Source of the DNA: an uncultured Muribaculaceae bacterium
GTDB taxonomy: Bacteria; Bacillota_I; Bacilli_A; RF39; UBA660
Direction of reading: 5' to 3'
DNA: 64,000 nucleotides
NCBI GenBank assembly: GCA_964369625.1
Contig: CAYJFC010000002.1
Location: 5,502-69,501 of the forward strand
Shown: piece after piece, positions 2,771-14,197 of the stretch
Numbering within the stretch: position 1 is the first letter of the stretch
Layout of the letters: every line of letters starts with the position of its first letter
Notes under the pieces: generated by a model
What the model was told of the DNA's origin: nothing
Database searches by the model: none
The model's input: only the letters and a program-made list of their open reading frames with translations
Translations under genes and position numbers: made by a program

Positions 2771-2787
2771 ATTACATCTACTTTTTT
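2767..2787. terminator. Bidirectional intrinsic terminator shared by the convergent lysozyme and Nudix genes.
   Basis: GTAGAT-TAC-ATCTAC stem-loop flanked by A-run (2762-2766) and TTTTTT (2782-2787). Both stop codons lie within the stem. Confidence 0.6.
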
Positions 2788-3278
2788 AAAAGATAATCCA
2801 AAATAATTGAACGATTAGATATTCTAATCTTTTTTTCTTTCAACATATTTTTTAATTTTTCTTTATTTATAAATTCAGCATACTCTACTTCACTTTTTTG
2901 ATATATTAATTTTTTTATATCAACATCCATCTTTAGATAAAAAACATCCCATATTTGATGAGTCTCTTTAAAAGTTTGAAATATTGATATGTCTTTGTGA
3001 TTTATATCCAGTCCTATTTCTTCCTTAACTTCTTTAACTATACATGTAATTGAGTCATCTCCACTTATAACATGACCTCCTGTTAAAGCAAAGATACTTC
3101 CTTTTTCCTTAGAGGTATACTGCATTAATATTTCCCCTTTAGTATTTTCTATAATTATAACTGCTATTAAATAGTAATAACCATCTTCAACTTCATTTCT
3201 GACATTTTTTGTTCTCAAAATTTTTTTCCCTGTAAACACATTATTACAATTATATAAATCTAAATATTCTTTTTTCAT
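2778..3278 (-). CDS. Nudix hydrolase (166 aa).
   Basis: Nudix box variant GGHVISGDDSITCIVKEVKEEIGLDI (G-x5-D-x7-KEVxEExGL). Confidence 0.6.
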   Translation of the reverse strand: MKKEYLDLYNCNNVFTGKKILRTKNVRNEVEDGYYYLIAVIIIENTKGEILMQYTSKEKGSIFALTGGHVISGDDSITCIVKEVKEEIGLDINHKDISIFQTFKETHQIWDVFYLKMDVDIKKLIYQKSEVEYAEFINKEKLKNMLKEKKIRISNRSIILDYLLKK

Positions 3279-5396: not shown

Positions 5397-5999
5397 TTAT
5401 CTAACATATGTACTTACATGTGTTAAATAAGATTCATCTTTAACTATTATATTATCATTTTCAAATAAGTGTAATATATTTTCTCCGGTAGTAACCGAAT
5501 AAAAATTTTCACCAATTGAAAGTGTATTTTCTTCTCTTAGTAAATTACAAACTATATCTAATTTATTTTTTTCTTTTTTTAAATCATCACTATTTCCCAG
5601 ATCAACTAACTTATTTTCTATATCGTTTCTATTAACTAACCAGTTTTTTGATAATTTGTATTTTTTTATTTCTTCTTTATCAAAATTAAATGGCGACTCT
5701 AAAAAATCTTGTCTACTAGAGCACTCTCTTTGTTTTTCACTAATAGTATACGCTTTAAGCGGTAAATCACTTATAATTTCAAATGCACATAAAATATCAT
5801 TTTTTGCCATTAATATATAATCTATATTCATTTTTTCTATTCCTGCTAATATTATTTCCAAAACATTTTTTGATGCATGGTATTTTTCCTCAGTATTATA
5901 TTTACACTGTAAATAAGCTGAATTAACTAAAGATACAGGCACGTAAAGCGCTAATATATCCTCATCTTGTATTATTTCATTATACGAATAATTTTTCAT
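5397..5999 (-). CDS. Hypothetical protein (200 aa), no recognisable motif.
   Basis: Long ORF in AT-rich DNA, tightly packed in a co-directional operon. Confidence 0.5.
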   Translation of the reverse strand: MKNYSYNEIIQDEDILALYVPVSLVNSAYLQCKYNTEEKYHASKNVLEIILAGIEKMNIDYILMAKNDILCAFEIISDLPLKAYTISEKQRECSSRQDFLESPFNFDKEEIKKYKLSKNWLVNRNDIENKLVDLGNSDDLKKEKNKLDIVCNLLREENTLSIGENFYSVTTGENILHLFENDNIIVKDESYLTHVSTYVR

Positions 6000-6053
6000 A
6001 TCTTTCTCCTTATATAATTATATTATATCACTATAATTGATATTTTAGAACCT

Positions 6054-7103
6054 CTATTTTACTTTTATCTCTACTTCATTTAGAATATCATTATTTACTT
6101 CCAAATCATTAATTTTAAGTTGTAATTTATCTTCTGGACCACTAGGTATATTAGTTATATCTATATTTTCATAATGATATGCCATTCTTAAACAAAGATT
6201 AATTAATTTATTTGTGATGTTATACTGTATGTTATCAGCATTAATTAATTTTAACTTACAATCATATTTTGATTGGTCATTATAATACTTATTTTTATTG
6301 TATATTGATAATAGTTTAGCATTATATCTTATAGGCATCATATGAATAACCTCAATATCTTTTATACTTTTTGCAAAAGCCGTTCTTATAATACTATTAA
6401 ATGCGTATACAAAACTGTGAGTAACATTCATAATATCATCATCAAAAGATATATCACCATTTAATTTATAAAGTTTTCTATTTACTTTTTTTGCAAATTT
6501 ATTCGTATTATTTTTATTTGACTGCATAGCATATAAATATAATTTATTATCAGAAATACCATAATATATAAGAGGAAAAAAATATTCCAATCCATTTAAG
6601 GATAATTTAATTTCTAAAGCATAAGGCGTTTCATTAACTATTTTACTTTTAATAGTTTTAACTATTAAATCAGATTCAAAAAAAGAAGAATATTCAAAGC
6701 AAGTTTCATTTATCAATTTATTTTCAAAAAACTGTATTCTATTTTTTAAAAAATATATAGGATTTTCAAAATCATATACAGTAGCATTTGACCACAATAA
6801 AGATAAAATTGTTTTGATTTTATAATAATCATTACAATCATCTTCAAGTAATTCTTCAAATTCATAAAAATCTAGCGCTTTTTCTACATAAATGCCTAGT
6901 AATTCGTTAAACAATGATATATTATTTATTTTTAATGTCGGAACAGTATATTCATTAAAAGTATCATTACATTTCATATCAATTCCTAATTCAGAAATTT
7001 TAGTATTAAAAAGTATATTATATTTAAAATAACTTTCTACACATCCTTTAGATGCCTCTTGAATTATTTCTTCAAAAAATATTTTAATACATTTTTTATC
7101 CAT
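6054..7103 (-). CDS. Hypothetical protein (349 aa), no recognisable motif.
   Basis: Long ORF. A 4-nt gap separates it from the upstream kinase gene. Confidence 0.5.
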   Translation of the reverse strand: MDKKCIKIFFEEIIQEASKGCVESYFKYNILFNTKISELGIDMKCNDTFNEYTVPTLKINNISLFNELLGIYVEKALDFYEFEELLEDDCNDYYKIKTILSLLWSNATVYDFENPIYFLKNRIQFFENKLINETCFEYSSFFESDLIVKTIKSKIVNETPYALEIKLSLNGLEYFFPLIYYGISDNKLYLYAMQSNKNNTNKFAKKVNRKLYKLNGDISFDDDIMNVTHSFVYAFNSIIRTAFAKSIKDIEVIHMMPIRYNAKLLSIYNKNKYYNDQSKYDCKLKLINADNIQYNITNKLINLCLRMAYHYENIDITNIPSGPEDKLQLKINDLEVNNDILNEVEIKVK

Positions 7104-7107
7104 ATAT

Positions 7108-7923
7108 TTACCCCTCTAATTTTTTTATTTCATCCCATTTATTTGCATATTTTTGCATATCAGATAGCATATATTTATATGCTCTACTCATTCTAATAAA
7201 GAAAATAATTTTAATATAAGAAGAAATATATTTTTCCTCTACTTCGCATAGTGAAATTATTTCTTTAAGTGATATCACATCAAATAATGTTGCATCAGAA
7301 AAACAATAAAAAATAAAATCATAAACAGGGTCACCAATTAAAGTTTCTGGATCAATTATAGCGACAAAATTATTATCTTTAACCATAGTATTATGTAGTC
7401 CAAAATCTCCATGAATAAGCTTTTTTTCAAAAGTATAATTCTTCATTTTATATAGTTCATCATTTATTATTTCAAAAGTTTCATTATCAAAATAATGGGT
7501 TAGAACTTCTCTTGCATCACTGCATTCATCCTGTAAAAATTCACACCATGAATTTTTAATATTATTATAATATCCATATCCATTACAATTAATTCTTTTA
7601 TAACTTTTAGTTATATCATATATAATCTTAATTAAATTAATTATTGGTCTCGCATCTTTACAATCATTTGCTTCCAGCATTTTATATACTATAAATTCAT
7701 TATCAACATCAATATCAATAAACTTTGGATAAAATTTATTTTCATATATCGAAAAATAAAATGCTTCTCCTTCTAAAACTTTTTTCTTCTTAAATTTAAA
7801 AAAATATTCATTATTAACATTATATGCTCTACTTTTACTACCACTTTCAATTAATTTACAATCAACTAAAGTAATATTTTTTTTTGACAAATATTTTTTT
7901 ATTATATTTACATCTCTTTCCAT
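7108..7923 (-). CDS. APH/choline-kinase-fold small-molecule phosphotransferase (CotS/APH family), 271 aa.
   Basis: Catalytic loop HGDFGLHNTMV and metal-binding IIDPETLIGDPVYDF. ATP-lysine region FKFKKKKVLEGE. Confidence 0.7.
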   Translation of the reverse strand: MERDVNIIKKYLSKKNITLVDCKLIESGSKSRAYNVNNEYFFKFKKKKVLEGEAFYFSIYENKFYPKFIDIDVDNEFIVYKMLEANDCKDARPIINLIKIIYDITKSYKRINCNGYGYYNNIKNSWCEFLQDECSDAREVLTHYFDNETFEIINDELYKMKNYTFEKKLIHGDFGLHNTMVKDNNFVAIIDPETLIGDPVYDFIFYCFSDATLFDVISLKEIISLCEVEEKYISSYIKIIFFIRMSRAYKYMLSDMQKYANKWDEIKKLEG

Positions 7924-7938
7924 ATAATTTCCTCTGAA

Positions 7939-7951
7939 TCAATTATAACAC
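7939..7951 (-). promoter_or_regulatory. Extended -10 promoter (TGTTATAAT) for the kinase operon.
   Basis: Reverse complement of 7942-7950 is TGTTATAAT, about 18 nt upstream of SD AGAGGAAA and ATG at 7923. No good -35. Confidence 0.4.
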
Positions 7952-8067
7952 TTTCGAAGCAAAAATAAATTTATATATTCAATTTTTCTTTTTCTAGTTT
8001 ATATTCATAAATAAACTTTTTGTAATCATCTTCTAATTTTACTGTTCCTTTGATTAATCCCACTGCG

Positions 8068-8190
8068 CACCTCTACTTAAAGTATATCATTTTTTACTTA
8101 TATTTAAAACTATTCCTATACTTGCAAGTGAAATTAATAAACTAGACCCACCATAACTAAGAAAAGGTAGAGTTACCCCCGTCACGTATA
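8068..8190. repeat. Direct-repeat copy A (about 89% identical to 9567-9692): duplicated 3' end of ftsW plus about 25 nt downstream including an SD-like AGAGGTG.
   Basis: By-eye alignment 8085-8190 versus 9588-9695 gives about 11 mismatches per 104 nt. The shared CACCTCT reverse-complement SD lies at 8068-8074 and 9567-9573. Confidence 0.8.
8087..8190 (-). pseudogene. Start-less fragment encoding the last 29 codons of FtsW ([29 protein letters not shown]), identical in protein to the real FtsW C-terminus.
   Basis: Minus-strand translation of 8087-8176 is identical at all 29 aa to the C-terminus of the 9591-10673 product. All 8 differing codons are synonymous. The frame has no Met and an upstream in-frame stop at 8236-8238. 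Confidence 0.7.
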
Positions 8191-8240
8191 TTTGGTTAGT
8201 ACTTTTTTATGGTTACACTTTTTAATTAGTCTATTTTATT

Positions 8241-9563
8241 TTAAAATAATTTTAATTTCTTTCTAACTATTTTTTCATTATTTTTAGAACCAGTTCCTAA
8301 AGAAACTATATTTGAATTTGTTTCATCTTCTAACCATTCTAAATAATTTCTTATATATCTATTAAAGTATATATCATCATAACGACCTATTACCTTTGAA
8401 TAGTTAATATCAAGATGTTGGAAAAAGTTTAAGTATAAATAATTTGGATCATTTACTATACAATTATTTTTAAGTTTTTTAATATCTAAATCAAACACTC
8501 TTCTTTCTTTTTTTGTAACAGTAGTTGTTTCAGATAAATCTTTTATTTCCCCAAAATCATAAAATTCACTACTATATGTAACATTATTTTGTAGTTTATT
8601 ATATAATCTTTCTAACTCCAGTAATTTAATATTATTAAGATTATTCAAATCAACTTCACCATTAAATACTTGTAGGAGTTGTTCCTGTGAAAATTTATTT
8701 ATTATAAATTCAATATATTCTTTATCGATAATAAAACTTAAATCATCAAACATATCTATAGTCGGATAACTTTTATTTAAAGATGAAATATTTATATGTG
8801 ACCAAGTAAGTTCGTTACCAGTTCCATACCTACCTGTATTAATATAATTTCCATTATAAGAAATGTTACTAATTCTTATAGGAAACGGCCTAATAACCAT
8901 TAAAGTATCTAAAAGTCTTAAAGGTGATATTCCTGAATCTGCTAATAACTGAGAGGTAGAAACATTTCTACTTGTTACATATGGGTAATTTCCACTATGA
9001 TTAAGTGATAAATCAGCCCCTTGCGACCCTTCTAATAAAACATATCCTTGAATGTTATTTAAATGCTTATTAATTTTTTCTAAATAGTCATCATTTTTAA
9101 TTACTATAGCATTTTTATATCCTTTGAAAAATTCTAAATCAGGATTTCTAGTTACTTTTTCTGATATAGCCGTTCCACAACCTTTAAATGTAGAGCCAAA
9201 TTTCAAATTGTTTTTTTCGTATTCTTTGTGTCTATCATCTATAATTGGTACCATTTCATGAACATATATCTTTCTATCTCCAAGTAAGTCTTTTATACTT
9301 TCATATTCAACAATAAAATCATTCATATCTATTATTGACCCAGGACCTATAAATAGTTCAGCTTTTTGATTTACAATGGTTACTGGAATATTTCTAAATA
9401 CATGTTTTAATCCATTTTCATCAACAAAGGTGTGACCTGCATTAGGCATATTATTAGTTATTGTAGCAACTATATTATAATCTGTTGCTATCTCTCCAAT
9501 TACTTTACCTTTACCACAGCTACCTGCTGCTCCATCAATAATCGAAATAACATTTCTATTCAT
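8241..9563 (-). CDS. Adenylosuccinate-synthetase (PurA)-family ligase, non-canonical. P-loop is GSCGKGK instead of GDEGKGK and the Arg cluster is lost (440 aa).
   Basis: PurA motifs GSCGKGKV, NAGHT, GSTFKGCGTAISEKV (compare GTTGRGIGP) and EGSQGADLSLNHSGNYPYVTSRN (compare EGAQGxLLDIDHGTYPYVTSSN). NTGRYGTGNELTW replaces TTGRRRRTGW. SD AAGAGGTG lies 5 nt before ATG. Confidence 0.75.
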   Translation of the reverse strand: MNRNVISIIDGAAGSCGKGKVIGEIATDYNIVATITNNMPNAGHTFVDENGLKHVFRNIPVTIVNQKAELFIGPGSIIDMNDFIVEYESIKDLLGDRKIYVHEMVPIIDDRHKEYEKNNLKFGSTFKGCGTAISEKVTRNPDLEFFKGYKNAIVIKNDDYLEKINKHLNNIQGYVLLEGSQGADLSLNHSGNYPYVTSRNVSTSQLLADSGISPLRLLDTLMVIRPFPIRISNISYNGNYINTGRYGTGNELTWSHINISSLNKSYPTIDMFDDLSFIIDKEYIEFIINKFSQEQLLQVFNGEVDLNNLNNIKLLELERLYNKLQNNVTYSSEFYDFGEIKDLSETTTVTKKERRVFDLDIKKLKNNCIVNDPNYLYLNFFQHLDINYSKVIGRYDDIYFNRYIRNYLEWLEDETNSNIVSLGTGSKNNEKIVRKKLKLF

Positions 9564-9566
9564 AGT

Positions 9567-9692
9567 AACACCTCTTGGTTGTTTATTATATCACTTTTTA
9601 CTTATATTTAAAACTATTCCTATACTTGCTAGTGATATTAAAAGACTTGATCCACCATAACTAAGAAATGGTAGCGTTACCCCTGTAACAGG
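9567..9692. repeat. Direct-repeat copy B: the functional ftsW 3' end plus the SD of the PurA-like gene.
   Basis: See copy A. Homology decays upstream of codon -30 (VTG) and about 25 nt beyond the stop codon. Confidence 0.8.
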
Positions 9693-10673
9693 TATAAGTC
9701 CCACAACTACAGCTAAATTGAGAAGTGCTTGCACTAGTATTCCGCTTCCTATACCAAATGATAAATATTTTGCAAATAAATTTGTTTGTTTAAGAGATAT
9801 TTTAATAATTCTATAAAATATAAAAAAGAAGAAAGATGTAACAATTATGACTCCTAAAAAACCAAATTCTTCACTAATAATAGAAAATATAAAATCAGTT
9901 TGAGGCTCAGGAAGATAAAAATGTTTTTGCCTAGAAGACATAAATCCTTGTCCGAGAAGACCACCTGGTCCTATTGCATATAAACTTTGAATTATTTGAA
10001 AACCTGATCCAAGTGGATCACTCCATGGATTCAAAAACGATACAATTCTGGCAACTCTATAGGGTGCCGCTATAATTAAACCTACTACACCAAGCAACCC
10101 TGCTATACCTAATTTTATAAAAAAACTTAAGTTAACTCCAGAGGCAAATATTATAATTATATTAGTTAACACTAGTACTACACCCGTTCCAAAATCTGGT
10201 TCTAGCATAATTAAAGTAAATGTTAAAATAATAACACCTAAAAGCGGCATTATATTTTTTATATTATTATTGGTATTAATTTTATTTTTAGATAAATATT
10301 TAGATGTAAAAATAATTAAAGCTAATTTTGTAAATTCTGAAGGTTGTAATCCAAACGAACCTATACCAAACCAACTTCTAGATCCATTACGAACAACTCC
10401 TATCCCAGGAATAAGTACTAAAATTAATAATACGAAACATATTATAAAAATTAAATTACTTCTTTTTTCATAAAATTTATAATTAATTTTAGAAATAATA
10501 AATACTCCAATAATTCCTATTATTAAAAATAAACTCTGCTGCATAACAAAACGATACTGGTTATCAAATTTATATTCTGCCCATACATAACTAGAAGAAT
10601 ATATCATTATACAACCAAAAACACTTAATATAACAACACTTATTAAAAGTGGATAGTCTATTTTTTTACTCAT
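9591..10673 (-). CDS. SEDS-family peptidoglycan glycosyltransferase (FtsW/RodA/SpoVE), 360 aa.
   Basis: 10-TM profile. Typical SEDS C-terminus [23 protein letters not shown]. No obvious SD. Confidence 0.8.
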   Translation of the reverse strand: MSKKIDYPLLISVVILSVFGCIMIYSSSYVWAEYKFDNQYRFVMQQSLFLIIGIIGVFIISKINYKFYEKRSNLIFIICFVLLILVLIPGIGVVRNGSRSWFGIGSFGLQPSEFTKLALIIFTSKYLSKNKINTNNNIKNIMPLLGVIILTFTLIMLEPDFGTGVVLVLTNIIIIFASGVNLSFFIKLGIAGLLGVVGLIIAAPYRVARIVSFLNPWSDPLGSGFQIIQSLYAIGPGGLLGQGFMSSRQKHFYLPEPQTDFIFSIISEEFGFLGVIIVTSFFFFIFYRIIKISLKQTNLFAKYLSFGIGSGILVQALLNLAVVVGLIPVTGVTLPFLSYGGSSLLISLASIGIVLNISKK

Positions 10674-10696
10674 ATACTAAACTTTATTAAGTTTAT

Positions 10697-10724
10697 AAAA
10701 AAAAAGAACCCAAGTTCTTTTTTT
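10697..10724. terminator. Bidirectional-type intrinsic terminator downstream of the nuclease gene.
   Basis: A9-AGAAC-CCAA-GTTCT-T7. The nuclease stop codon (10723-10725) abuts the T/A-run. Confidence 0.55.
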
Positions 10725-11448
10725 ATGTTAAATAACTAGTTCCATCACTATAATTAATTGTCACTCCTGGCTGTACATTATATACATATACATTAAACAT
10801 TATTTCATCATCTAATGTAGATAAAGCTTCCATAATAACACCGCTAGCAACTAAATTATCTCCATCATAAACTGGAGTTACTCTATACAAAACTGGATTA
10901 CCTGTTTCTTTAATATAGTCTGCTACCATATTTTCAAAAGGAAGCATTCCTTCAACATTAAAATATCTTGTTCCTGTTATTAAATTTTCTTCGTTGGCAT
11001 TTTCACCAGTTAACTGAAATCCGATTAAATGTGATCTATTATATAAATATTTCCCTGACACAATATCATACTTAACTGTTTGCCATCCGCTAGGCTTTAC
11101 CGTTCCTATGCTCTCTCTATCTTCAGTAGGCATTAAACTACTATCTATTTTTGCATATGCAGTGCCAGCTCTATTTAAATTATCTAGTGGCATATATTCT
11201 TCAAAAATATTTTTTTCTTTGTCATTATCAGTAAATAATGGGATATTATCATTTAATACTACATATATATTTTCAGTATATACAGGAATATCATCAATAT
11301 TATAACTTTCATATGTAGTTGCACTTTCTATTGTAGTTTTTGCATCATCAGTGAAAAAATTAATTACATCATCAAATGAATATGATCCATTTAAAAAGTA
11401 AATACCAATTCCTACAAGACCCACTAAACCTATTAATGTTTTTTTCAT
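10723..11448 (-). CDS. Secreted DNA/RNA non-specific endonuclease (NucA/EndA family), 241 aa.
   Basis: N-terminal signal/TM segment. Active-site region NRSHLIGFQLTGENANEENLITGTRYFN (DRGH-type motif). Confidence 0.7.
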   Translation of the reverse strand: MKKTLIGLVGLVGIGIYFLNGSYSFDDVINFFTDDAKTTIESATTYESYNIDDIPVYTENIYVVLNDNIPLFTDNDKEKNIFEEYMPLDNLNRAGTAYAKIDSSLMPTEDRESIGTVKPSGWQTVKYDIVSGKYLYNRSHLIGFQLTGENANEENLITGTRYFNVEGMLPFENMVADYIKETGNPVLYRVTPVYDGDNLVASGVIMEALSTLDDEIMFNVYVYNVQPGVTINYSDGTSYLT

Positions 11449-11921: not shown

Positions 11922-12404
11922 TTAGTATTCTCTGTTTACATGGTGAAATAATCGATTATATTTTATTATCTCATATAAAATATCAGGAACAACATTATAA
12001 TCTTTCAATTTATTTATTTCAATCCATTTAAAATATTCTTCACTGCTAGCTGTTTCATCTTGATTATATATTATTTCTGGAAATATATATTTATCAACTT
12101 TTAAAGATAATTCTCCAATAAAAAGAATTTCATGTCTACTTTTTTTATCAAAATCAGATTCGAAGAAATTTTCTACAATTCCTCTTGTTCTAACAAAATT
12201 GCATTCAAGTTTTGTTTCTTCGTAAATTTCTCTAAGCATCGCTTCATGTGCAGCTTCACCTACTTTGCATTTACCACCTGGAAGAGTTGCATAATCTGTT
12301 TTTTCATTAAATTGTAATAATACTTTTTTATTATGTATTACCAGTGCGCTAACTCTAAATACAAAATTCATTTTTTTATCTACTATTTTAATATCTTTTC
12401 CCAT
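11922..12404 (-). CDS. Nudix hydrolase (160 aa).
   Basis: Canonical Nudix box GGKCKVGEAAHEAMLREIYEETKLEC. Confidence 0.75.
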   Translation of the reverse strand: MGKDIKIVDKKMNFVFRVSALVIHNKKVLLQFNEKTDYATLPGGKCKVGEAAHEAMLREIYEETKLECNFVRTRGIVENFFESDFDKKSRHEILFIGELSLKVDKYIFPEIIYNQDETASSEEYFKWIEINKLKDYNVVPDILYEIIKYNRLFHHVNREY

Positions 12405-12464: not shown

Positions 12465-14197
12465 AAATTATATTTGGTTGTTTTTTCATAAACTGTATGA
12501 AATAATTCATGTGCTTTTTCTTTTCCAGGTTTCCCAATATATTCTAAATATATTTTTTGCATTTCTGGATTTTCATGCGATTTTCTAATTTTGCTTTTTT
12601 CATCTACACTATATAAAGCACTTGCTCTTAAACTTCTAACATCTGTTTTATCCAAAATATTGCTATGCACTATAGGTTGACCACCACCCATGATGCATCC
12701 TCCTGGACATGCCATTATTTCTATAAAATCATATTTTTCTTTACCCGATTCTAATTCTTTTAATATAATGTCCGCATTTTTAAGTCCAGATACTACTACT
12801 AATTTGTACTCCTTATTATTAATTGTTACTGCTGCTTTTTTGATAGCTTTGTCTTTTCTAATTTCTTCAAAAACTATTTTTTCACTTCTATCTCCTAGTA
12901 AATCTTTAGCAGTTCTAACAGCAGCTTCCATTACTCCTCCAGAAGTTCCAAATATAGCAGCAGCTCCAGTTGCATACCCAAGAGGATTATCAAACTCTTT
13001 TTCTGGTAAATTCTTAAAATCAATACTGTAATCATTTATTAATTTAGCAAGTTCTCTAGTAGTTATTACTGCATCAACATCTTTTAAGCCATTTACCTCA
13101 CTACCTTTTTTTGTGATTTCATATTTTTTTGAAGTACATGGCATAACTGATACAACAAAAATATTTTCTGGTTTTAACTTATTTCGTTTAGCGTAATAAG
13201 ATTTAATAACGGCACCAAGCATTTGATGAGGTGATTTACAAGTAGACAAATGATTTATGTAATTTGGATAGTTCATTTCTATAAATCTTACCCAAGCAGG
13301 TGAGCAAGATGTTATCATTGGTAATATTTCATTATTTTGAATACGCTTTACTAGTTCAACAGCTTCTTCCATAATCGTAAAATCTGCACCCGTATTAGTA
13401 TCAAATACTTTTTTAAATCCCATTTCATTTAGAGCACTAACCATTTTACCAGTAACGTTTTCTCCTATTTCATAGCCAAATTCTTCACCTAGTGCTACTC
13501 TTATTGACGGAGCAGTTTGAACAACAACATATTTATTCTCATCTTTAAGAGCCTTTTTAACTTTAGATATATTTTCTTTTTCACTTAAAGCACCAGTTGG
13601 ACAAGCTATAATACACTGACCACAATATGTGCAATTTACATCATTTAAACTTGCGTTACATGCAGTGCTAACAATTGAATCAAATCCTCTGTTCATTGTA
13701 TTTATAGCACCTATATTTTGAATTTTATCACATACACTTACACATCTTTTGCATAATATACATTTATTTGAATCTCTAACAATAGATGGTGATTTATCAT
13801 CTATTTGATAAGTGTGCTTTTCACCTTTATAAATTGATGATTCCACATTATATTTTTTCATTAATTTTTTTAGTTCACATTTGCCTTTTCTAGAACAATT
13901 TAAACAATCAAAATGATGATTTGAAACTATTAAATTAAGCATTTTTAATCTGGCTTCTTCTACATCAATTTCATTTGTATTTACATTTAAACCATCATAA
14001 ACTTTTAAAGAGCACGCTGTATATAATTTATTATCTTGTAGATTTTTAACAAGACACATACGACAACTACTATTGTTATTTACATTTTTTAAAAAGCATA
14101 GTGTTGGTATAAAAATATTATTACTTCTAGCCACTTCTAAAATGGTTTTACCTTCATTAACAGTAAATTCATTATTATTTATACTTATATTAATCAT
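12443..14197 (-). CDS. hydA: [FeFe]-hydrogenase catalytic subunit HydA with N-terminal 2Fe-2S and 4Fe-4S ferredoxin domains (584 aa).
   Basis: H-cluster motifs TSCSPAW (L1), MPCTSKKYE (L2), MACPGGCIMGGGQP (L3). Multiple CxxCxxC clusters at the N-terminus. Confidence 0.9.
   Translation of the reverse strand: MINISINNNEFTVNEGKTILEVARSNNIFIPTLCFLKNVNNNSSCRMCLVKNLQDNKLYTACSLKVYDGLNVNTNEIDVEEARLKMLNLIVSNHHFDCLNCSRKGKCELKKLMKKYNVESSIYKGEKHTYQIDDKSPSIVRDSNKCILCKRCVSVCDKIQNIGAINTMNRGFDSIVSTACNASLNDVNCTYCGQCIIACPTGALSEKENISKVKKALKDENKYVVVQTAPSIRVALGEEFGYEIGENVTGKMVSALNEMGFKKVFDTNTGADFTIMEEAVELVKRIQNNEILPMITSCSPAWVRFIEMNYPNYINHLSTCKSPHQMLGAVIKSYYAKRNKLKPENIFVVSVMPCTSKKYEITKKGSEVNGLKDVDAVITTRELAKLINDYSIDFKNLPEKEFDNPLGYATGAAAIFGTSGGVMEAAVRTAKDLLGDRSEKIVFEEIRKDKAIKKAAVTINNKEYKLVVVSGLKNADIILKELESGKEKYDFIEIMACPGGCIMGGGQPIVHSNILDKTDVRSLRASALYSVDEKSKIRKSHENPEMQKIYLEYIGKPGKEKAHELFHTVYEKTTKYNLKKEIPQ

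Follow-up and report, generated by a model that had tools for sequence, protein, structure and literature searches.

Insertion of a replacement ftsW 3′ end and a single PurA/PurZ-like gene at a palindrome in ftsW of an uncultured gut bacterium

In this work, we analyzed an insertion in the 3′ end of ftsW, a cell-wall gene of the dcw cluster, in a 64-kb stretch of contig CAYJFC010000002.1 (assembly GCA_964369625.1) from an uncultured bacterium of the RF39 lineage. This stretch is called the window below; all coordinates are those of its 64 kb, and L numbers (e.g., L003) denote loci fetched from other genomes for comparison. Our central observation is that a 1,504-bp block of foreign DNA, made up of a functional ftsW end and one gene for a PurA/PurZ-like protein, is inserted at a palindrome near the end of ftsW. 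The genes of the region all lie on the minus strand of a genome of ~25% G+C. On that strand ftsW is followed by a 27-nt spacer, the PurA-like gene, 55 nt, a second copy of the ftsW end (copy A, the end within ftsW being copy B), an open reading frame (ORF) that is the start of a grpB-family gene (grpB′), a gene for an APH-like kinase and two further ORFs (Table 1). Relatives of the window are gut metagenome-assembled genomes (MAGs) of "uncultured Bacilli/Tenericutes".

The first line of evidence is the repeat itself. A self-comparison of the window returned a single family of ftsW-end copies with two members only, which align over 103 nt at 89% identity with a spacing of 1504 and which blastn lengthens to 110 nt (88.2%, E = 4.5e-35); a chance match of low-complexity sequence is excluded. 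The initial annotation had drawn the repeat wider, at 8068–8190 and 9567–9692 with ~89% identity, and had it run on through an AGAGGTG motif. The repeat and its identity were borne out, but its limits were not: identity between the copies stops 7 nt past the stop codon (TGATATA), the stretch beyond does not align, and the AGAGGTG motifs at 8068–8074 and 9569–9575 are separate Shine-Dalgarno (SD) sequences, the one near copy A serving the grpB fragment and not the kinase gene. As had been annotated, copy B is the real end of ftsW, because the 360-aa ORF terminates in it, and copy A is start-less, with stop codons immediately upstream and no ATG. That ORF matches Pfam FTSW_RODA_SPOVE (8.4e-115) and scores above the cutoff of the NCBIfam ftsW model (391 vs. 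337.5 bits), while its top NCBIfam match, spoVE, stays below cutoff (428 vs. 448.8 bits). The first codon of copy A (8185–8183) is GTG, vs. GTT in copy B, which formally permits a hydrophobic mini-ORF of 32 residues, but one not preceded by a ribosome-binding site.

The two copies differ in a way that speaks to their history. The common block comprises 32 codons (V329–K360) with 11 nucleotide differences in 10 codons, every one of them synonymous; the 29 shared codons with nine silent differences reported initially are the subset that starts at V332. Under neutrality, a random substitution in this block would be silent in ~25% of cases. In simulations, an all-silent outcome was found at a frequency of 1e-3 for five changes and 1e-4 for six, and in none of 100,000 trials for 11 changes (p<1e-5). 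Silent-only differences indicate that the two ends diverged while both were functional ftsW ends, i.e., in separate lineages, as the initial annotation had proposed. The C-terminal amino acids of FtsW are identical even in relatives whose FtsW is only 80–86% identical overall, so that a foreign ftsW end would be functionally interchangeable with the native one. Pairwise nucleotide comparison of copy A, copy B and the native (distal) ftsW end in L001, the closest relative, gave 89–90% identity throughout, so the donor was about as distant as a sister species. Older distal ftsW-end copies in L030, L034, L066 and L160 carry frameshifts and replacement changes, and copy A has neither, suggesting that the event in the window is comparatively recent.

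The DNA behind copy A indicates which of the two ends is native. The grpB′ relic is identical at 23 of 28 residues to the N-terminus of a GrpB-NUDIX protein encoded directly after ftsW in L003 (E = 4e-13). By blastn, copy A together with grpB′ aligns with the ftsW-end/grpB junction of that locus over 151 nt at 77%, the grpB part reaching 88% over 83 nt. Copy A and grpB′ are therefore a relic of an ftsW→grpB junction, and the inserted block accordingly comprises 1,504 bp, beginning with V329 of copy B and ending one base short of copy A. The grpB gene was later cut at codon 30 by whatever introduced the kinase cluster. When GTDB species representatives were scanned with FtsW and rearrangements were located by tblastn and self-blastn, 67 of the resulting 80 loci had no rearrangement at the ftsW site. 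Most relatives possess a single ftsW end, which excludes an arrangement with identical repeats shared by all of them. Empty sites had thus been predicted correctly, but not the junction expected there: it is ftsW→grpB (L003), and ftsW directly before the kinase operon was not found, the kinase, orf349 and orf200 being without a homologue in any fetched locus.

The position of the insertion is not peculiar to the window. Across independent genomes, rearrangements of ftsW cluster at FtsW residues 329–334, where the native sequence of codons 329–333 is a palindrome of the form GTNAC-NGGN-GTNAC (V-T-G-V-T), with GTNACNGGNGTNAC as the candidate site of a large serine recombinase (LSR) and the ftsW attB centered on GTTACNGGNGTAAC. 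This palindrome is the attB of a family of LSR elements in the gut Bacilli MAGs of this clade, with the crossover at G331. Elements are present at G331 in L074, L037, L075, L060, L071, L003 and at least 17 metagenome loci. The palindrome site in copy B corresponds to the attB read from the junctions of L074, L037, L075, L144, L147, L150, L152, L060, L071 and L003, with the crossover in the GG of G331. L074 has, exactly in that GG, an element of 2.95 kb with a RelB/ParE pair and a 525-aa LSR (L074:12276–13853; domains Resolvase, Recombinase and Zn_ribbon_recom). The elements in L037 and L075 measure at least 10 kb, their LSRs being 56% and 78% identical, and the contigs of L060 and L071 terminate in arms of the same element families. 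A metagenome scan with the L074 LSR as query returned about 30 close homologues (52–92% identical). In 17 of these loci the ftsW end, from residue 329 or 331, lies 60–100 nt past the LSR stop codon, and both junctions are visible in L144, L147, L150 and L152, with elements of 3.4–10.3 kb. Wherever an intact LSR occurs with a visible attL (7/7: L074, L037, L075, L144, L147, L150 and L152), FtsW is truncated after VTG(V) and loses 29 residues, the PFLSYGGS motif and the final helix among them.

Several further observations concern these elements. Those at ftsW-G331 (L074:10988–14031; L037, L075, L060, L071 and L133–L160) measure 2.9 to >10 kb, have the LSR gene adjoining attR, and carry cargo that includes RelB/ParE, nucleotidyltransferase, HAD and peptidase S51 genes. 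In L003 (=L009):10941–11160, two contigs are joined across a gap of 10 N. The first runs through ftsW...VTG into an element arm, the second begins within an intact ftsW, and the same 53 nt stand on both sides of the gap. It looks as if the site were occupied in part of the population and empty in the rest, in which case the element would be active. Relatives of the LSR in IMG/VR are distant only (≤40%) and uninformative, and our search of the literature found no paper linking ftsW or spoVE with serine-recombinase integration.

A full-length ftsW accompanied by a distal ftsW-end copy, as in the window, also recurs in L001, L049, L160, L030, L034, L066, L013 and possibly L012. In L049, two copies 97% identical enclose 620 bp of cargo, and the identity block starts at V329 as it does in the window. 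Between its copies, L160 retains the attP arm (E = 3e-15 with a hidden Markov model of the P arm) and an LSR that is frameshifted and truncated at its N-terminus, and the first ~104 nt of the element have been replaced by the ftsW-end copy. L030 is a single-gene cassette with an attP arm directly before the distal copy (E = 1e-3 with the same model). A register-fixed position weight matrix (PWM) for the attP arm gave <1e-4 for both L160 and L030, and p = 4e-4 for L034. These three loci are demonstrably decayed LSR elements, and such elements leave the same architecture as that of the window, a restored ftsW and a distal relic. Every restored ftsW end that we found belongs to a locus with a decayed or missing recombinase; intact elements never have one.

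Two of these parallels have features of their own. In five species, L012 with reservation, a single ORF6N-like gene of ~230–360 aa lies between ftsW and a decayed ftsW-end copy (Table 1), the ORF6N-like label referring to a sequence motif, ...IENMIYEIRGKQVMLDSDLAKLYGVETKRINEAV..., and not to a family match. In L001, the cargo comprises a GDPD fragment, HIT and Fic, and the copies form a mosaic: they are 99% identical to about residue 324–330 and 77% identical from G331 on, with almost all differences past G331 silent, and the in-gene end is closest to that of another species (L004, 90%). Behind the in-gene end stands a 54-aa ORF that matches part of the GDPD gene next to the distal copy at 74% identity (L001:11108–11272 vs. 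13113–13283), so the imported block included the start of the donor's next gene. An in-place tandem duplication and a simple Campbell integration were both rejected for L001, since neither yields the 99%/77% mosaic.

On balance, we lean towards reading the cassette of the window as a recombinase-less remnant of site-specific traffic at the ftsW hot spot, where the use of a recombinase and the order of events are what we infer from the same site being the LSR chromosomal attachment site in the clade. The integration into the ftsW 3′ end with a replacement end that the initial annotation had put forward gains support from the silent divergence, the relic junction and the recurrent insertion point. 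In this scheme, 1,504 bp of DNA from a related lineage would have been inserted into the ftsW 3′ end at the palindrome of codons 329–333, and the incoming DNA's own ftsW end, copy B, would have kept ftsW intact. The original end, copy A, would have been pushed 1.5 kb downstream together with the first 30 codons of grpB and would now be a start-less relic, and the PurA-like gene would be read behind ftsW, either on the transcript of ftsW or by way of the promoter-like TGATATAAT. Two routes can be envisaged. An element may have brought its own ftsW end and then lost everything else, or an ftsW disrupted by an element may have been repaired by recombination with the intact allele of a relative. 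Such a repair would destroy attL and ground the element, which could then be deleted. The enzyme that acted in the window would be such an LSR, and the source of the replacement end would be either a mobile element or the chromosome of a relative.

A number of results weigh against this reading. No genome of the same species with an empty site was found in the databases, the best FtsW relative being 86% identical, and neither a circular nor any other copy of the cassette was found. No recombinase lies in or beside the cassette, as judged from ORFs, Pfam and an empty tblastn search of the window with the L074 LSR; in keeping with the initial annotation, the PurA-like gene is the only ORF between the repeats, and its neighbors (window 7900–9700) are without recombinase domains. 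The 55-nt flank (8186–8240) has no match to an LSR attP arm, with nhmmer returning none and the register-fixed PWM giving p = 0.10. The P-arm profile used with nhmmer comprises 12 sequences and an arm of ~90 nt, and the arms of a second LSR subfamily (L154 and L156) also fail it, so that another LSR subfamily could account for the window flank. Relative to the L074-type GG crossover, the start of copy A (V329) is displaced by 6 nt to the left, and L049 has the same offset. The attR sites of LSR elements read ...TTAG|GG, their P arms ending in TTAG, and the reconstructed junction of the window reads ...ATATACGTGACG-GG-GGTAACGCTACC...; copy A is therefore not a simple attR of the L074-type family. 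Finally, a replacement end is absent from all seven intact-LSR elements with a visible attL, which implies that the end came by a second step or from a different type of element.

A bolder generalization, which we regard as possible but rather doubtful, holds that in a clade of uncultured gut Bacilli the palindrome is a dedicated LSR landing site where elements switch ftsW/spoVE off by taking away the PFLSYGGS motif and the last helix, and that lineages escape by capturing intact 3′ ends of siblings or other species, thereby locking the element, allowing its recombinase to decay and leaving single-gene cassettes. Within that generalization, the att site might capture genes much as an integron does, with an essential gene in front of it, and it could perhaps also turn cell division or the synthesis of spore cortex on and off reversibly.

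The most serious alternative, to which we would assign a minor but appreciable likelihood, involves no site-specific enzyme. DNA of a relative that carried the PurA-like gene behind ftsW would have entered by homology on the left and an illegitimate joint at codon 329 on the right, or a circularized fragment would have integrated by a Campbell-type single crossover. The nature of the foreign end, a genuine ftsW end at about sister-species divergence (89–90%), fits such an origin, as does the foreign block of L001, which includes the start of the next gene (the GDPD fragment, 74%) as expected of a chromosomal chunk, and whose distal copy begins at residue 238 rather than at the att site. The PurA-like protein also ranks relatives as FtsW does (68% vs. 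78%, in the same MAG, GCA_964371745), and there the PurA-like gene may follow ftsW at a distance of a few kb; the window itself is without an LSR signature. However, one would not expect a random joint to land on the very palindrome that bounds the L049 duplication, the mosaic break of L001 and all LSR insertions, and in no fetched genome does the PurA-like gene stand directly after ftsW.

It is less likely that an integrative element of another kind was responsible, such as one with a tyrosine integrase and an attP identity block reaching from codon 329 to the end of ftsW, which was later reduced to one gene. In the window as in L049, the block starts at V329, which puts it 6 nt left of where the LSRs cross over, and ends just past the stop codon. 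This is the classical layout for such an element, and e14 in icd shares it. Yet among the roughly 200 ftsW loci that we inspected there was no tyrosine integrase and no integrase-bearing element of this type, the recombinases seen at the site being LSRs only.

The window derives from a MAG contig and its closest relatives are co-assembly MAGs, and the L003 scaffold has an N-gap join at this very site. A chimera in which co-assembly joined two strains or species through the conserved ftsW end nevertheless appears very unlikely, because with 11 differences and a longest exact shared run of about 35 nt (as read from the alignment) the copies should not collapse at large assembly k-mers. Copy A is moreover flanked by unique sequence on both sides, without a shared k-mer at its left boundary, and assemblies made independently in other studies show the architecture as well (L049, L160, L030 and L034). 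Least probable of all is that an ancient tandem duplication diverged within this genome: it could produce direct repeats with a 1.5-kb spacing, but a neutral start-less copy should have gained the replacements and indels seen in the older distal copies rather than 11 silent changes out of 11, an outcome already rare with five or six, and the arrangement is absent from the closest relatives.

The cargo of the cassette deserves separate comment. Its product matches Pfam Adenylsucc_synt partially (1.9e-30), and its top NCBIfam match is PurZ (NF038379; 193 bits, under the cutoff of 300), vs. 120 bits for the canonical PurA model TIGR00184 (cutoff 395) and 94 bits for PRK01117 (cutoff 402). The nearest structures in the PDB are the 6FM1/6FKO/6TNH group, deposited as adenylosuccinate synthetase, followed by PurA of Pyrococcus horikoshii and PurZ of S-2L (7ODX). 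We take the 6FM1/6FKO/6TNH group to be phiVC8 PurZ. The P-loop of the cargo reads GSCGKG, which is PurZ-type, vs. GDEGKG in P. horikoshii PurA, and its serine, invariant in the cargo family, corresponds to S23 of S-2L PurZ, which together with T273 and Q308 forms the PurZ-specific substrate-contacting residues of that enzyme (PMC8342488). Where P. horikoshii PurA has TMLD, the cargo has NFFQ; we matched this motif to N305-F306-x-Q308 of S-2L by residue numbers and not by alignment of the S-2L sequence, and its Q varies among homologues. The cargo also carries an insertion of ~80 aa. Judged from these sequence features, it is not a canonical PurA.

Many Bacilli MAGs carry members of the cargo family, which are conserved at 55–68% identity but lie in chromosomal contexts unrelated to one another. 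The initial annotation had suggested looking for the gene beside an ftsW fragment elsewhere, or on phages and plasmids, and it was found in neither setting. The nearest PurA-like gene (L002, 68%) has no adjoining ftsW fragment, and homology ends at the gene borders. Matches in phages reached 30–34%, those in phage and plasmid collections were partial at 30–35%, and IMG/VR returned three at 28–29%, so that no close phage or plasmid relatives were seen. Neither a Z-cluster (mazZ/datZ) nor a phage context is present by the cargo, its neighbors being ftsW and the kinase-like gene. A role of the cargo in a defense system was considered and dropped, PADLOC having returned no match for the PurA-like gene or the three genes downstream. 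The cargo appears to belong to a conserved, uncharacterized PurZ-like branch of adenylosuccinate synthetases in gut Bacilli.

Table 1. Features of the ftsW region in the window (minus strand) and ORF6N-like genes found behind ftsW in other genomes.
Feature	Position (strand)	Description
ftsW	9591..10673 (-)	dcw-cluster SEDS gene, intact, 360 aa; last 32 codons are copy B
Copy B	9587..9689 (-)	V329-K360, stop, plus 4 nt; in-gene (replacement) ftsW 3′ end
Palindrome GTTACAGGGGTAAC (V329-T333)	9676..9689 (-)	left edge of copy B
Spacer, 27 nt	9564..9590 (-)	ftsW stop to PurA-like start; SD AGAGGTG 9569-9575
PurA/PurZ-like gene (cargo)	8241..9563 (-)	440 aa; adenylosuccinate-synthetase family
Right flank of insert, 55 nt	8186..8240 (-)	PurA-like stop to copy A
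Whole inserted segment, 1,504 bp	8186..9689 (-)	replacement ftsW end, spacer, PurA-like gene and 55 nt; equals the repeat spacing
Copy A	8083..8185 (-)	start-less displaced ftsW 3′ end, V329-K360, stop, plus 4 nt; amino acids intact
Palindrome GTGACGGGGGTAAC	8172..8185 (-)	left edge of copy A
grpB′ relic	7971..8063 (-)	first 30 codons of a GrpB-family gene, GTG start, SD AGAGGTG 8068-8074, ended by a stop codon
ORF6N-like locus	L030:11361-12188	
ORF6N-like locus	L034:4529-5553	
ORF6N-like locus	L066:3145-4171	
ORF6N-like locus	L013:3422-4596	
ORF6N-like locus	L012:7220-8551	possible case

The cassette gene, which follows the ftsW stop codon after 27 nt and has an SD to itself, is without a promoter in the usual sense. 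An extended -10-like element, TGATATAAT (9585–9593), overlaps the ftsW stop codon as part of a TTTAAA-16-TATAAT arrangement with TG, a consensus match only, and such promoter-like matches are not enriched over shuffled sequence. The full TTTAAA-16-TG-TATAAT spans 9585–9612 (-) in copy B, a weaker form, TGATATACT, occurs in copy A at 8081–8108 (-), and TGATATAAT is also present after the ftsW stop codon in L001 and L003. The end of ftsW may therefore double as a promoter for the downstream gene. Rfam identified no structured RNA in the window, and no terminator-like sites were found in 7800–10900. An apparent attP relic, GTGTAACC...AAAAAAGT, ~32 nt from the core, was rejected, as nhmmer found none at 8186–8260, all matches in the window had E>3, and the PWM gave p = 0.10.

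Downstream of the cassette, a cluster of three genes (5397–7923, minus strand) begins ~50 nt past the truncated grpB fragment and consists of the APH-like kinase, which has weak Pfam matches only, and ORFs of 349 and 200 aa without a family match. This kinase cluster looks like a second, separate insertion. More generally, the variable DNA that flanks ftsW (in L001, L002 and L003, and in the window at 2778–3278 and 11922–12404) is rich in small genes for the handling of nucleotides and phosphoesters, including several NUDIX in a row, HIT, Fic, GrpB, UDG, HAD, GDPD, Exo_endo_phos, His_Phos and Maf, in an order that differs per genome.

These findings indicate that a conserved, probably essential cell-wall gene can be a landing pad for mobile DNA without being lost, and they link gene-splitting serine-recombinase elements with replacement-end insertions of the e14/icd type, which are usually treated apart. 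If disrupted ftsW genes are indeed repaired in a way that locks the element in place, this would explain the origin of orphan single-gene cassettes with host-gene repeats, and repeats of gene ends that differ at silent sites only could serve as a marker for old integration sites in MAGs. The ftsW palindrome and its LSRs, with variants 52–92% identical and visible attL/attR pairs, also provide a natural set of att sites for recombinase engineering.

Among known systems, the closest precedent is e14 and phage 21 in icd of E. coli. In the case of e14, the prophage supplies the 3′ end of icd, a 163-bp icd′ fragment remains at the distal side, and the in-gene end differs by synonymous changes and two conservative Asp/Glu codons (PMC6379469, PMC13626634). 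The likeness lies in an insertion close to where a protein-coding gene, essential or core, terminates, an in-gene end derived from the incoming DNA, and a start-less duplicate of ~100–160 nt at the far junction, with copies that differ mainly synonymously. In contrast to the window cassette, which has one gene and no integrase, e14 and phage 21 measure ~15 kb or more, encode their own integrase and excise precisely. The LSR elements of the relatives resemble instead the intervening elements that split sporulation genes, such as skin in sigK, SPbeta in spsM and gin in gerE (PMC5595907), and other cases of "regulated gene integrity" (PMC7192596): they lie within a coding region, at a fixed dinucleotide in a short palindrome, with the LSR gene beside attR and the target truncated. 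The window differs from these in having no LSR and an intact ftsW, and the known intervening elements leave no replacement end. Islands in tRNA and tmRNA genes similarly duplicate the 3′ end of their target, with a functional proximal copy and a distal fragment that marks the far end of the island, but here the target encodes a protein, so that the repeat diverges only at silent sites, and the "island" is a single gene without an integrase. Finally, integron cassettes are comparable in that a single, apparently promoterless gene lies behind a fixed site with upstream expression signals, and in that different single genes occupy the same site (PurA-like in the window; ORF6N-like in L030, L034 and L066). 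Unlike an integron, the site in the window has no attC-type hairpin, IntI or cassette array, and its flanking repeat is a piece of the host gene.

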